A stretch of DNA of 36,240 bases from Candidatus Thorarchaeota archaeon (lineage in GTDB: Archaea > Asgardarchaeota > Thorarchaeia > Thorarchaeales > Thorarchaeaceae): assembly GCA_016839605.1 (NCBI GenBank), contig JAEOTX010000228.1:1-36240 (forward strand). The letters run 5' to 3'. The notes under the pieces were generated by a model. It was not told where the DNA came from. It saw only the letters and a program-made list of their open reading frames with translations, and did not search any database. Both the position numbers and the translations under genes were made by a program. Shown here piece by piece: positions 4,763-19,543 of this stretch. Numbering within the stretch: position 1 is the first letter of the stretch; each line of letters opens with the position of its first letter.

Positions 4763-4814
4763 TTTATAAATCCAGAACGTACAATATAATCAGAACGTTC
4801 CGGAAAAACAGAAC
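4763..4814 (+). promoter_or_regulatory. Archaeal TATA box with downstream tandem 18-bp palindromic operator-like sites
   Basis: TTTATAAA at 4763-4770. CAGAAC recurs at 4773, 4791 and 4809 (exact 18-bp period). Units 4779-4796 GTACAATATAATCAGAAC and 4797-4814 GTTCCGGAAAAACAGAAC fit GT(T/A)C-N10-GAAC and cover the expected transcription start. Confidence 0.6.
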
Positions 4815-4841
4815 GAACCGGAACATTCGTAGGATATTCGC

Positions 4842-5279
4842 GTGGTACAAAAATTGTCCGATACAAAAACTGAACAAGTGTCTGCGGAAAATGCGATGGA
4901 GTCGCAAGAAGCATTCAAGAAGAACCAAGAGTTGAGGATGGAAACCCCATCTATCAATATCGAAACTCATCCTGATCCTGTATTGCTAGTCAAGACCACT
5001 CATTCAGGATCGTATGCCCGAATCGTAGCTGGAGTTGTAGGTTCAATGGTTCTGTTGAGCCCATTGTTACTGCTCCCAGGTCTTATCCTGCTAGTCCTCC
5101 CTGCTGAGGTATACATACTAGGTTGGACCTATGATTGTGTCATGGAGCTCAGAGGCTCTGGAACTAAGACTCCAACCTATGGTCCAATCGAGGGCACTGT
5201 GCCTTTGGAACTCGCAAAGGAACAGACCTCCTTGTCTACTCTTCGCTATACTAACTCACGCTTTGAGGTGCTGGAGTAG
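4842..5279 (+). CDS. Hypothetical small membrane protein, paralog of 5292-5636
   Basis: Central hydrophobic hairpin IVAGVVGSMVLLSPLLLLPGLILLVLPAEVY aligns with the next ORF. GTG start uncertain. Confidence 0.75.
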   Translation: MVQKLSDTKTEQVSAENAMESQEAFKKNQELRMETPSINIETHPDPVLLVKTTHSGSYARIVAGVVGSMVLLSPLLLLPGLILLVLPAEVYILGWTYDCVMELRGSGTKTPTYGPIEGTVPLELAKEQTSLSTLRYTNSRFEVLE

Positions 5280-5291
5280 GAGGAACTGAGA

Positions 5292-5636
5292 ATGGCACGA
5301 ATAAAAGCTGAATCAACATCGAGCCTCGATACTTCACGTATCGTTCATTCCTCTCCTTTCCAGTCTCTACGAGTCTACTCAACACCCCTCCTTGGAATAG
5401 TGGGGATGATAGTTTTGCTTTATCCCCTCACAATATTTCCAGGTCTAATCATGGCCGTCCTGCCAGCTGAGATCTACCTAGCCGACAAGGTCTATACCGG
5501 ACTCACTTCTCGCACGCCCCTTCTAGAACTGATTGAACTTGGCACGCCACTAGATGATCTTGAGGACGCACGCGCCCGAACGGCTGGCGGACGACCGCCC
5601 AATGCTACTGATGGAATAATCCCATTCGTAAAGTGA
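5292..5636 (+). CDS. Hypothetical small membrane protein, paralog of 4842-5279
   Basis: GGAGG ribosome-binding site just upstream. Hydrophobic segment LLGIVGMIVLLYPLTIFPGLIMAVLPAEIY. Confidence 0.8.
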   Translation: MARIKAESTSSLDTSRIVHSSPFQSLRVYSTPLLGIVGMIVLLYPLTIFPGLIMAVLPAEIYLADKVYTGLTSRTPLLELIELGTPLDDLEDARARTAGGRPPNATDGIIPFVK

Positions 5637-5830
5637 TCAAAATGATCAAGGCTCCTTTCTATCTCCTCAAAGTCGCAAAGTTATTGGAGCCCGTGCTGAC
5701 GGCTCCGGCTTCTTTCCCTACTTCCTCCGCCGCTACTTTTGCTGGAGGCCCGTCAGCACAAATTGATACTCGAAGGATCGGTTTCAACAGAAACCCAGCT
5801 TTTTCATATCTCTCCGAGGTGACGATATGA
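5633..5830 (+). CDS. Putative small ORF (65 aa, or 62 aa from ATG 5642), function unknown
   Basis: GTGA overlap with the upstream stop and ATGA overlap with the next ORF. No recognisable motif. Lies inside a strongly structured region. Confidence 0.3.
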   Translation: MIKMIKAPFYLLKVAKLLEPVLTAPASFPTSSAATFAGGPSAQIDTRRIGFNRNPAFSYLSEVTI

Positions 5831-6022
5831 CCTCCACTAATAAACATCATTTCAATCATAGAAGCTCCGCAATAATGCTTCTACGTTTCCTGCTCGCACA
5901 CACTCGTCAGCCTGATTACTCCGCATATTACCCGATTTCCAAGTCGTCAAGGAGTAATCAAAAAAGGGGGTTCCCATCCTCAATCGGAGTGGTGGTGCCC
6001 CCTTACCACTATCATAAGGTGA
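5650..6022 (+). ncRNA. Candidate structured RNA / cis-regulatory leader with multiple hairpins
   Basis: Inverted repeats: 5650-5655/5686-5691; 5693-5709/5741-5759 (17 bp including a perfect 10 bp); 5780-5785/5790-5795; 5804-5810/5824-5830; 5859-5865/5877-5883; 5913-5922/5951-5960 (perfect 10 bp); 5964-5981/5987-6004. G-U pairs favour the + strand. No known family recognised. Confidence 0.45.
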
Positions 6023-17159: not shown

Positions 17160-17162
17160 ACA

Positions 17163-18095
17163 ATGAGCAACAAAAACGCAAGCATTGGAGTACTGATAGA
17201 GGATCTCAAGGTGAGCTTCAAGTTCGCCGCGAAGAACATCCTTTCTTTCCTACTAGGGATGATTGGTGTTCTTATTGTAACAGTGATTGTTATGGGTGTC
17301 GCAATGGCTATAGTATCCGTCCCGCTCCTCTTTGCACTTGGTGGACCTGCGGGATTTGTAGCATTCTTTGAATCTCTGGGTGTAATCATGGAAAGTGTCT
17401 TTGTAGCACAGCCTGATCCTGCTGTTGCCAGCCTTGGAATCATCGCAATCATGCTCCTAGTGACTCCATTCTTTGTGGCTATTGGTGTAGTCTTCGGGAT
17501 GGGTCGTGAAATCGTTGAGAGCGCAGGTACGAGCGCTGAGGGAGTTTTTGTCTGGTATCGCAAGAAGTTCTTCTCACTTGCAGGTGGAGGTATCGTCATG
17601 TTTGCAGTAATCGGATTACCCCTCATTCTAGTATATGGAGGCCTCTTCTTGGCTGGTTATGGTCTCACAGGCGTTCCTGCTGCAGTGCTTGCATCTCTAA
17701 GCGCAATATGGATTATCCTGTCATCCGGGATGTTGACTATGGTGTTCCCTGCCATCATTGACAATTATTCTGTCTTCAATGCAACTCGTCAGTCTATACG
17801 TCTGTCCTTGAGATATTTCGACCGAGTGTTCTCAACTTGGATTGGGTTCATCCTAATCATCATCTTGATGTTCGTACCACTTGGGCTGGGAGCCACATCC
17901 TTTGTAACTGGCGAGATGGGCTTTGATGCTATCCCAATAATGATCTATGCAGTACCCGCTGTAATCATTCTAGTACTCATTGTACTCCCCGCGTTGGTGA
18001 TTGCCCTAAGCAGGCTCTACATGATTCTGAGTGGCATCGAAGTTACAAGTTCAGGCCAGGTTGAGCCTGATGTAAGTCTTGTTGGAGGTATGTGA
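17163..18095 (+). CDS. Multi-pass membrane protein, close paralog of 6030-6947
   Basis: DLKVSFKFAAKNILSFLLGMIGVLIVT, GMGREIVESAGTSAEGVFVWYRKKFFSLAGGG, MVFPAIID and YFDRVFSTW. ATG 17163 follows a GGTGA SD. Confidence 0.87.
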   Translation: MSNKNASIGVLIEDLKVSFKFAAKNILSFLLGMIGVLIVTVIVMGVAMAIVSVPLLFALGGPAGFVAFFESLGVIMESVFVAQPDPAVASLGIIAIMLLVTPFFVAIGVVFGMGREIVESAGTSAEGVFVWYRKKFFSLAGGGIVMFAVIGLPLILVYGGLFLAGYGLTGVPAAVLASLSAIWIILSSGMLTMVFPAIIDNYSVFNATRQSIRLSLRYFDRVFSTWIGFILIIILMFVPLGLGATSFVTGEMGFDAIPIMIYAVPAVIILVLIVLPALVIALSRLYMILSGIEVTSSGQVEPDVSLVGGM

Positions 18096-18098
18096 GTC

Positions 18099-18743
18099 GT
18101 GGAAAATGGGTCGACAACAGTTCCTTTGAAGGACTTAGAGGTCATCACAGATTCCAAGAAGATCAAGATACTATTCGAGCCAACTAGGGCAAGCATTGTG
18201 TTCCAGTACCTGGTAAATGCTTCATATACTGTAAAACAGCTGTCAGATGAACTCGATAAGAACCCAGGTACAATCCTTCATCACATACAGAAGCTGCAAG
18301 ACATTGGCGTTGTTGTCCAGGAACGAACAGAGATGACGCCAACTGGCATAGTTCAAAGGTATTACCGTGCAACCGCTAAAGAATACCGTCTAGGCATTAG
18401 TGGAATGATGGAAGCTAATGGTGGTGTTGCACAGTTTGCAAAGGACCGACTCAAGTCCATTGTATCAAGCCTCTCGGTCTATGGTATCGAGATTCCAGAG
18501 TCTCAGTTCGAGGAGGCTATGGATGTATTGAGGAGGTTGATTGAACGGGAGAATGCTGTGAACTCGGACCTGCCTATAGCGGATGAGAAACGGTTTCACA
18601 AGATGCCTTCCTCTCTTAGGGGCGATGCATCCCGAATCATGCGTCGCTTTACTCTGGAAGAAGATTCGGAATATCAGAAGCTGCGAAAAGAGTGGCACCG
18701 CCTCCTCCGATCGCATCGCAAAGTAGGTATAGGAAATGACTAG
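18099..18743 (+). CDS. ArsR/HTH_20-like winged-helix regulator, paralog of 6944-7567
   Basis: KKIKILFEPTRASIV..TVKQLSDELDKNPGTILHHIQKL..TGIVQRYYRATAKEYRLG. C-terminal EWHRLL matches EWHRFL in the paralog. Confidence 0.9.
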   Translation: MENGSTTVPLKDLEVITDSKKIKILFEPTRASIVFQYLVNASYTVKQLSDELDKNPGTILHHIQKLQDIGVVVQERTEMTPTGIVQRYYRATAKEYRLGISGMMEANGGVAQFAKDRLKSIVSSLSVYGIEIPESQFEEAMDVLRRLIERENAVNSDLPIADEKRFHKMPSSLRGDASRIMRRFTLEEDSEYQKLRKEWHRLLRSHRKVGIGND

Positions 18744-19494
18744 TTACGAAAGAAACACTGGAATGGTAGTGTGTATAATTGGTGTAATAGTCGTAGGAGC
18801 GGTCTTAGTGGGCGCCTTCTCGTTCTTTGGGCCGTCAACATGGGGCTGGTTCACAGGCGATGATACGGTGTATTATCATTTTGACAGCACTGTGGGTGCT
18901 ACGACAGGGACAGTAAATCTTGATGTAGATGTCACGACTGGTGCAGTCAATATCGACTTCGAGGACAATGCAACACTGTTGTATCGGATAGATGTTGGAG
19001 CCAGTAACCGAACGGTTCAGGAGATTGGCGCGCCAACAGTCACTTTCTCCGCCAACACTATAACTTATGATTACACGACATCGGCTATCAATATCACGTT
19101 GGGTAGTGGCGTCAATTATACATTGTATGTTACCACTGATACCGGCGCAGTTGACTGTGATGTCATGCATAGTGCACACATTGGTGATGTTACAATCACA
19201 ACCGGCACTGGAGCTATTGACTTCTTCATGGGCAGTGGTGTGGTCGTTATTGGTAGTCCAGACTTCAGCTTTGAGACTACTACTGGAGCGGTTGAACTGA
19301 ATATAGTCCTCCCCTCTGGAGTCGGCGGCAGCATTGAGGCTGACGTTGGCACGGGGTCTGTAGACATCGATGCACCCGGATGGACTGAGATAACATCAAA
19401 GCACTATGAGTCCGGTGACTATGATACTGCAAGCCAGACAGTGACTATTGTAGTTCAGACTGGCACAGGAGCAGTTGAAGCAGACATTAGCTAA
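18736..19494 (+). CDS. Membrane-anchored DUF4097/'Toastrack'-like beta-strand repeat protein
   Basis: N-terminal TM helix followed by repeated x-T/D-T-G-A/S-V/I-x units (VTTGAVNID, TDTGAVDCD, TGTGAIDF, TTTGAVELN, VGTGSVDID, TGTGAVEAD). Confidence 0.78.
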   Translation: MTSYERNTGMVVCIIGVIVVGAVLVGAFSFFGPSTWGWFTGDDTVYYHFDSTVGATTGTVNLDVDVTTGAVNIDFEDNATLLYRIDVGASNRTVQEIGAPTVTFSANTITYDYTTSAINITLGSGVNYTLYVTTDTGAVDCDVMHSAHIGDVTITTGTGAIDFFMGSGVVVIGSPDFSFETTTGAVELNIVLPSGVGGSIEADVGTGSVDIDAPGWTEITSKHYESGDYDTASQTVTIVVQTGTGAVEADIS

Positions 19495-19507
19495 CCGCAC
19501 GCCTTTT

Positions 19508-19543
19508 GGAGGGACTCTTTCCCTCCTCTCTCTTTCTTTTCTT
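19508..19543 (+). terminator. Hairpin plus pyrimidine/U-tract terminator ending operon 2
   Basis: GGAGGGA (19508-19514)-CTCTT-TCCCTCC (19520-19526), then TCTCTCTTTCTTTTCTT, shortly after the stop at 19494. Confidence 0.7.

Follow-up and report, generated by a model that had tools for sequence, protein, structure and literature searches.

The window analysed here, a stretch of 36,240 nucleotides from a Candidatus Thorarchaeota archaeon, includes two gene strings on the + strand, which appear in the list of open reading frames as operon 1 (4842-12116) and operon 2 (14952-19494). Both are built on the same pair of adjacent genes: mem, coding for a membrane protein with six predicted transmembrane (TM) helices, and reg, coding for a winged helix-turn-helix (wHTH) regulator. 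The opposite strand between the operons carries a DinB-like gene, two flavodoxin genes and one unknown gene. The whole assembly scanned (3.08 Mb, 80% complete) contains only three mem copies and two reg copies:

memA, 6030-6947, + strand, six-TM membrane protein, paralogue of memB
regA, 6944-7567, + strand, PH1932-like ArsR-type wHTH regulator (HTH_5, E 1.6e-12)
memC, 16169/16178-17089, + strand, diverged mem paralogue with no regulator of its own
memB, 17151-18095, + strand, six-TM membrane protein (database gene models begin at 17163)
regB, 18099-18743, + strand, PH1932-like wHTH regulator (HTH_5, E 1.2e-7)

In BLASTP comparisons memA and memB share 42% identity over 309 columns (E 5e-71), regA and regB share 41% (E 1e-55), and memC is 31% identical to memB (E 5e-39). 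An earlier note, made from the letters of this DNA, had described two operons on a duplicated membrane protein and wHTH core, each mem copy being directly followed by a paralogous regulator, with a third, diverged membrane paralogue nearby. These comparisons support all of this, and every gene named in the note is an open frame whose coordinates agree with those given to within a few codons. The paralogy of memA and memB therefore stands, but the long near-identical blocks reported for them do not: what they share at that level are short, highly conserved motifs.

Below, f1 and g1 denote the GTDB family and genus of the window, while L-, G- and C-numbers denote the loci, genomes and contigs compared. 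The genome samples are partial and kin genomes are not independent, which applies to all counts across relatives. The mem family is small (154 representatives at E<=0.001 in a profile search of 1.84 billion proteins), and the named members that were looked up belong to Thorarchaeota and Wukongarchaeota. In a 301-genome phylum sample mem is present in 74 of the 76 home-family genomes (the window's own not counted) and in 4 of 224 others.

The mem-reg pair is almost always adjacent. Among 116 regulator matches (E<=1e-12) from 81 f1 genomes, one of which is that of the window, at least 104 are immediately preceded by a mem gene in the same orientation; the aligned matches are separated by 2-243 nt. 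Of the twelve exceptions, five are in genomes outside the mem search, three stand at contig starts and one is a partial match; for the remaining three there is no mem gene among the matches listed, and one may exist. All 29 foreign loci fetched have a memB-type gene followed by a regB-type gene. A memC-type gene directly precedes the memB-type one in 28 of them, the exception lying at a contig edge, and a LiaF_C-like (Toastrack) gene comes after the regulator in 28. The memC position is also common, at least 36 further mem matches in f1 being directly upstream of another mem gene. Outside f1, all six regulators scoring >120 bits with the regulator profile A2 (families f2, f10 and f16) are preceded by mem, as against none of the eight weaker Asgard PH1932-like regulators (59-81 bits). 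A lack of adjacency in other genomes had been set beforehand as the test that could refute the earlier reading; since the pair is adjacent elsewhere, that objection fails.

Both regulators match HTH_5 (PF01022) above the Pfam cut-off of 22 bits (regA 47.5, regB 31.9). Profile A2, built from 30 members of the regulator family (208 positions), aligns over its positions 10-202 with residues 3-190 of the 192 in the PH1932 structure 1ULY (E 1.7e-26; 1ULY/2CWE), so that homology to PH1932 spans the full length of reg, covering both the wHTH and the C-terminal helical half. The same profile matches PDB entry 2P4W, annotated as an 'arsR family' chain (E 2.3e-5), which we take to be Phr. Phr is a heat-shock repressor/regulator. 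The C-terminal half presumably forms the dimer in both the PH1932 (1ULY) and 2P4W structures. It had been suggested earlier that this half receives a ligand handled by the membrane protein; because the whole protein aligns to 1ULY, it is not an orphan ligand domain, and reg belongs to a known two-domain type.

ArsR/SmtB sensor members are defined by metal- or metalloid-binding cysteine sites. regB lacks cysteine altogether and the rare cysteines of other members are not conserved in the A2 alignment, so that these regulators are unlikely to sense metals through thiolates. Neither of the two reaches the 55-bit cut-off of the NCBIfam metalloregulator model (regA 39.4, regB 27.5). Phr_regulator gives 25.3 and 27.8 bits, far below its cut-off of 320, and this weak match covers nearly all of regA and only the N-terminal third of regB. 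With the SdpR model NF033789 (cut-off 100) regA scores 41.7 bits (E 7.8e-11) and regB 18.4 bits. The Pfam PadR model gives 18.4 bits with regA, below the cut-off of 27, and no match with regB. Residues diagnostic of mem-paired regulators were also sought; none survived once the f16 pairs were included.

The membrane protein is harder to place. memA, memB and memC have no match of value in Pfam, NCBIfam or PDB sequence searches (best PDB match of the mem profile E 0.27, none credible), so that it belongs to no characterised transporter family, as the earlier reading required. However, distant full-length matches of the mem profile carry DUF7847 (PF25231) or GPDPase_memb (PF10110), with Pfam E-values of 5.9e-15 in P0344, 6.5e-11 in P0353 and 1.5e-5 in P0347. 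In an ESM Atlas feature search, which was queried with the stored mem homologue P0099 and returns feature matches only, DUF7847 and GPDPase_memb adjoin the Thorarchaeota clusters with scores of 0.92 and 0.91. memC itself has a weak direct match to PF10110 (E 0.016), while memA and memB match neither PF25231 nor PF10110 at E<=1. Because of the domains carried by the distant matches and of the ESM feature neighbours, we take mem for a divergent offshoot of the DUF7847/GPDPase_memb superfamily, probably related to it only distantly and linked via intermediates and language-model features. In the same genome the DUF7847 gene, on contig C179, has no small regulator gene as a neighbour, so this relative does not share the pairing here. 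One database member, P0314, fuses a beta-propeller region to the mem domain: in the domain scan, made on P0314, SBBP beta-propeller repeats and DUF7948 precede the mem-type domain at residues 689-992. P0314 is 1005 aa long, and P0392, another member of the same 90%-identity cluster, 1050 aa. P0314 had no match in the metagenome contigs searched.

Hydropathy and charge count predict six helices with the N-terminus inside and all Lys/Arg-rich segments cytoplasmic. Along 60 mem sequences the mean information is 0.72 in the cytoplasmic segments, 0.60 in the TM helices and 0.38 in the outside loops, which are predicted to be short (10-29 aa) and are the least conserved region. In memB the conserved cytoplasmic loops span residues of about 113-140 and 199-224. 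The nearly invariant polar residues are all in predicted cytoplasmic segments, no charged residue is conserved in the TM helices, and histidine is absent from the list of invariant or nearly invariant residues. Conservation on the predicted cytoplasmic face favours protein docking over ligand transport, and the short, variable outside loops argue against a conserved external ligand site. A transporter role was also considered and ranked low, as mem has neither a transporter family match nor a conserved charged residue in its helices.

The genes of the pair are tightly packed. The memA stop and the regA TTG start overlap by 4 nt, the memB stop and the regB GTG start are 3 nt apart, and regB overlaps the following Toastrack gene by 8 nt. 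Archaeal repressors usually act at sites over or just after the TATA box, and repeated elements are located at such positions in front of both operons:

Operon 1 promoter and putative operator, 4763-4826, + strand, TTTATAAA at 4763-4770
Operon 2 promoter and putative operator, 14857-14933, + strand, TTTATAAA at 14895-14902

In operon 1, TTTATAAA is followed by CAGAACG repeats with an 18-bp period, which include GAACGTTC-N10-GAAC at 4793-4814. GAACGTTC follows the TATA box in eight of nine orthologous operon 1 regions of the same genus, the ninth being masked with N, and the strict form of this A-type pattern occurs in the assembly once, at operon 1. In operon 2 two perfect GTTTG-N8-CAAAC palindromes (14875-14892 and 14916-14933) flank TTTATAAA, with an imperfect copy at 14857-14874. 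These two are the only occurrences of the strict B-type pattern in the assembly. Upstream of memC, each of the seven other genera compared has at least one perfect copy no more than 40 bp from the TATA box, and three of them have two copies; the same palindrome is also present next to the TATA box of a single f16 pair. A related GTTTGC-N7-GCAAAC is present at the '600-aa' subtype described below. The generic GTT-N12-AAC pattern was tried and rejected: it is not enriched in the window (9 matches vs 6.5 expected), therefore only the longer, specific operator patterns are informative.

The two copies of the pair are embedded in different sets of genes. Operon 1 contains, besides memA and regA:

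sm1, 4842-5279, + strand, small membrane protein with hydrophobic segments, no Pfam match
sm2, 5292-5636, + strand, small membrane protein, paralogue of sm1, with hydrophobic segments, no Pfam match
sm2-memA interval, 5633-6030, + strand, two doubtful small frames (5633-5830 and 5827-6030) or untranslated spacer
unk7582, 7582-8526, + strand, polytopic membrane protein of unknown family with five hydrophobic segments
Beta-lactamase-fold serine hydrolase 1, 8523-9779, + strand (PF00144, E 1.3e-29)
Beta-lactamase-fold serine hydrolase 2, 9790-11121, + strand (PF00144, E 2.4e-45)
APH-fold kinase, 11154-12116, + strand, last gene of the operon (PF01636, E 4.3e-24)

In both hydrolases an N-terminal hydrophobic segment is combined with a TM anchor at the C-terminus, and both contain SxxK, with YxN only in the second. 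The HxDxxxxN motif of the kinase reads HGDFDTSN. unk7582 matches nothing in Pfam or NCBIfam; its homologues adjoin beta-lactamase-fold genes and mem-reg pairs in genera g1 and g9. An sm2-like gene heads operon 1 in nine of eleven same-genus loci (L037, L038, L075, L076, L078, L080-L083), and in the other two (L077, L079) the contig stops before its position. Neither 5633-5830 nor 5827-6030 shows a hydrophobic segment or a Pfam match, and these frames may not be genes. Since beta-lactamase-fold and polytopic genes occupy this position in the sister genomes L075-L078, the stretch 5633-6030 may be a remnant or leader left by rearrangement.

The remaining features of operon 2 are:

Radical SAM enzyme, 14952-16163, + strand, first gene of the operon (PF04055, E 3.3e-15)
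Toastrack (LiaF_C/DUF4097-like) protein with a single TM helix, 18736-19494, + strand (PF09922 and profile A3)
Terminator-like hairpin with a T-rich tail at the end of the operon, 19508-19536, + strand, the hairpin itself at 19508-19526 (consensus scan only)

CX3CX2C is found at residues 83-90 of the radical SAM enzyme, which among the NCBIfam models best matches peptide or cofactor maturases. With only three cysteines, its C-terminal part falls short of a full SPASM domain. Divergent from this gene is one for a flavodoxin (14329-14784, - strand). The Toastrack protein as a single sequence scores just below the PF09922 cut-off of 29 (26.5 bits, E 6.5e-6), and the profile of its orthologues, A3, matches PDB entry 4QRK over 173 positions (E 3.1e-8). 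In the available text of Ravi et al. (2024, PMC11237479) 4QRK is named as a Toastrack structure. After one N-terminal TM helix come 224 residues, of which 29 are Asp/Glu and 3 Lys/Arg, and this single helix with a very acidic remainder hints at a possible extracytoplasmic location. A sigma-70 promoter scan was set aside, since it is bacterial and not relevant to an archaeon; only the terminator-like match after the Toastrack gene was used from it. The cargo assigned to the two copies in the earlier note (small membrane proteins, two anchored serine hydrolases and an APH-like kinase in the first, a radical SAM enzyme and a Toastrack-like protein in the second) is thus confirmed by Pfam, NCBIfam, the sequence motifs, the hydrophobic segments and the LiaF_C/Toastrack profile match.

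The mem and reg trees are congruent (55 pairs, distance correlation r 0.89, reached in 0 of 999 permutations). Four of five groups defined by gene context form clades in both trees, while the large B-type group is a clade in the mem tree only; the A-type clade containing memA comprises 11 rows, all from the genus of the window. This comparison shows that mem and reg were duplicated jointly. The B-type group, with the gene order memC-memB-regB-Toastrack, is also found in the sister family f2 (L062). These four genes are likely the ancestral unit and are retained throughout the GTDB family. The radical SAM gene stands upstream of memC only in same-genus loci (L006-L011, L013, L038; in L075 part of it is present and memC is not) and is a genus-level addition. 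The duplicated core claimed earlier for copy 2 is therefore right, but it consists of four genes and the radical SAM gene is not one of them.

The other groups differ in what surrounds the pair. A-type operons of g1 contain a small membrane protein, beta-lactamase-fold hydrolases, a polytopic protein and often an APH-fold kinase. Their hydrolase genes change position relative to the pair: they precede memA in L075-L078, follow regA in L080-L083 and in the window, and are absent from the operon in L038; the kinase gene comes directly after regA in L038 and L075-L079. In genus g9 (L041, L042, L047) the pair adjoins hydrolase and polytopic genes. A fourth group (L039, L043-L045, L048) always has a protein of about 600-640 aa encoded before mem, overlapping or abutting the mem start; it has two predicted TM helices and no Pfam match. 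The f16 pairs adjoin ABC (ATP-binding cassette) ATPases and FtsX/MacB_PCD permeases of about 960 aa. At L064 (G041:C4:827000-843000) two tandem mem-reg pairs are found with FtsX-type permeases of about 960-984 aa on both sides, an ABC ATPase gene preceding the downstream one. The cargo of the pair copies is always envelope-related: hydrolases, Toastrack, MacB/FtsX transporters and the ~600-aa two-helix proteins bear out the diversified envelope cargo proposed before.

Neighbouring genes allow a guess at how operon 1 came to its place. In other genera a PHP-domain gene is located near memC: in L040 and L050 it is divergent and no more than about 330 nt away, in L052 and L053 the distance is up to 2.2 kb. 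A 1100-aa protein with an N-terminal GNAT domain is encoded downstream of the Toastrack gene in L038, L050, L052 and L053. Genes for the same two proteins flank the operons of the window (PHP, 3999-4727, - strand; GNAT, 20327-23629, + strand). The PHP gene is here divergent from operon 1, and about 10 kb including operon 1 separate it from memC. Because it adjoins operon 1 rather than memC, the stretch from the A-type operon as far as the radical SAM gene seems to be enclosed by the ancestral neighbours. In one branch of the genus, represented by L037 (G245:C1:1228000-1246000), L080, L082 and L083, an extra memB-like gene stands divergent beside the A-type operon. In L037 a memC-like N-terminus continues into a 780-aa frame beside a 32-residue radical SAM fragment; this frame and the extra memB-like gene suggest a rearranged partial copy of operon 2.

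The sequence homology, the near-obligate adjacency, the duplication of the pair, the conservation of the putative operators and that of the cytoplasmic face of mem are all supported directly. We infer from them binding of reg at these sites, contact between mem and reg, and the direction of control and nature of the signal. The model would be as follows. reg would act as a dimeric winged-helix repressor of the PH1932 type, which binds the 18-19-bp palindromes next to or just downstream of its own TATA box and blocks transcription. mem, presumably made from the same transcript and translationally coupled to reg, would expose its N-terminus and the two best-conserved loops to the cytoplasm. A perturbed membrane or partner surface protein would change the state of mem, the candidate partners being memC with the Toastrack protein, the anchored serine hydrolases, the FtsX/MacB transporter or the ~600-aa two-helix protein. 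mem in its changed state would capture reg at the membrane, or release it, and the operon with its cargo would then be derepressed. Whether mem indeed docks or releases its autorepressor, as a membrane-to-DNA switch copied onto different envelope genes, is in our opinion an even call. This keeps the envelope-sensing or stress-response reading of the earlier note as far as the duplicated core and envelope cargo are concerned, but replaces the transport or ligand role of mem with docking, favoured by the cytoplasmic-face conservation.

Several points weigh against such a switch. The topology of mem rests on simple hydropathy and a positive-inside count. memC lacks a regulator that is its own, and in G210 a mem gene stands without an adjoining regulator. 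Regulator residues that look pair-specific in f1, e.g., a C-terminal Trp, fail to recur in f16, where the regulators are paired too. No fused regulator forms of at least 376 aa were found at E<=1e-10, so neither a mem-reg nor a reg-Toastrack fusion is known, which is weak evidence. Seven of 16 regions (L041, L042, L047, L046, the first pair of L064, L066 and L065) have no comparable palindrome within 220 nt upstream of the chosen start; in some of them the true promoter may lie further upstream. Finally, congruent trees are expected for any co-inherited neighbours and are no proof of mem-reg contact.

It is also conceivable, although we consider it rather unlikely, that mem is the regulated product and that the stimulus, which might be a small molecule or, as with Phr, heat or unfolded protein, is sensed by reg itself. 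Membrane-protective or structural roles would then fall to mem, memC and the Toastrack protein, effectors kept near reg by autoregulation, as in ArsR-ArsB. The match of the regulator family to 2P4W and the weak Phr_regulator matches of both regulators speak for this, as do the eight PH1932-like regulators without a mem neighbour, the mem genes without a regulator (memC and the one just mentioned), and the relatives of mem, since GPDPase_memb and DUF7847 are anchor-like membrane domains. Yet it leaves unexplained why mem and reg are copied together amid complete exchange of cargo, why the cytoplasmic face of mem is conserved and why the start and stop codons are coupled.

Quite improbable, in our estimate, is antimicrobial sensing or immunity of the strict SdpI type, with mem binding an external toxic peptide or antibiotic-like compound and the cargo (hydrolases, kinase, ABC exporter, radical SAM peptide maturase) serving as resistance functions. 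The SdpI precedent and the resistance-like folds of the cargo (beta-lactamase, APH, MacB/FtsX ABC transporter) fit it, and operon 2 is headed in this genus by a radical SAM gene with maturases among its best matches. However, the predicted outside loops of mem are too short and variable to favour an external ligand, no match to the SdpI family of Pfam was found for mem, the radical SAM gene is confined to one genus, and the APH and beta-lactamase matches of the window are far below the NCBIfam family cut-offs for resistance enzymes. No precursor peptide turned up, and no search aimed at one was made.

That the adjacency is due to chance or to some oddity of this genome alone, the two genes being functionally unconnected, has a practically negligible probability given the adjacency counts in f1, in the 29 foreign loci and in other Asgard families, and the conserved putative operators at memC, operon 1 and other pair promoters.

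Returning to the docking model, we tentatively propose a wider reading, which is possible though doubtful. In Thorarchaeia and a few neighbouring lineages a DUF7847-like six-helix protein may read the membrane or its partners and dock a PH1932-type repressor, and duplicated copies of this device may have come to control at least four types of envelope cargo: a Toastrack protein outside the cytoplasm, anchored serine hydrolases, MacB/FtsX transporters and large proteins with two predicted helices. It would be an archaeal counterpart of bacterial envelope-stress two-component systems made of unrelated parts.

Envelope sensing in Asgard archaea is little known and none of these proteins has been studied. 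The module is nearly universal in one Asgard family, and clear, testable cis-elements together with several rewired copies make it a tractable entry point. If docking takes place, the principle of SdpI/SdpR and of HAAS-PadR would extend to archaea with non-homologous parts, a branch of DUF7847/GPDPase_memb and the PH1932-type regulators would receive a first function, and a Toastrack domain would possibly be extracellular, contrary to current prediction. If mem is an effector, the locus is an ordinary autoregulated stress operon. Literature searches on PH1932, on DUF7847 and on Thorarchaeota, ArsR and membrane proteins, mostly outside subscription journals, returned no account of this pair, in line with the earlier statement that it is not a described system. 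As far as these searches reach, the proteins and their association are undescribed and the principle is known.

Among known systems, PH1932 (1ULY/2CWE) and Phr (2P4W) of Thermococcales are full-length sequence homologues of reg, but the mem-paired regulators form a separate branch (>120 bits with profile A2, compared to 59-81 for unpaired Asgard relatives). DUF7847 (PF25231) and GPDPase_memb (PF10110) are borne by distant members of the mem profile and are its ESM feature neighbours; unlike them, memA and memB have no direct match, and the DUF7847 gene of the same genome has no small regulator neighbour. In BlaR1-BlaI and MecR1-MecI a membrane sensor and a wHTH repressor control a beta-lactamase. 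Operon 1 resembles them in having a membrane protein and a wHTH repressor beside beta-lactamase-fold hydrolases, yet mem has neither the M56 peptidase nor the penicillin-binding sensor domain in Pfam, and no histidine among its invariant or nearly invariant residues.

A close likeness in logic is to SdpR-SdpI of Bacillus subtilis, in which SdpI sequesters the ArsR-type autorepressor SdpR, according to the available text of PMC2910880. As described there, an ArsR-type wHTH autorepressor and a six-TM membrane protein are encoded in one tightly coupled operon under autoregulatory control, and a conserved cytoplasmic motif of the membrane protein is proposed as the docking site. The sub-threshold match of regA to the SdpR model points in the same direction. 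On the other hand, the gene order is reversed, mem being first here; memA, memB, memC and four homologues have no match to the SdpI family in Pfam even at E<=1; the regulator is twice as long, with a C-terminal half of the PH1932 type; the promoters are archaeal, with TATA boxes; and a toxin gene is not known here.

Ravi et al. (2024, PMC11237479) propose that HAAS-PadR wHTH dyads with Toastrack/PspC signal envelope stress in place of two-component systems. These dyads share with our loci a stand-alone wHTH protein, a membrane-linked partner and a Toastrack protein in one neighbourhood. Here, however, the wHTH is of the ArsR/PH1932 type with a PadR match that is weak and below cut-off, no HAAS domain (DUF1700/DUF1129/DUF1048) was found by Pfam in the mem proteins, and Toastrack is possibly outside the cell, while an intracellular domain is predicted in that source. 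Its main text describes Toastrack as sporadic among archaea and mentions no link to ArsR, the string 'arsr' occurring there 0 times. The logic of the mem-reg pair does have described counterparts, shown for SdpI/SdpR and proposed for HAAS-PadR with Toastrack.

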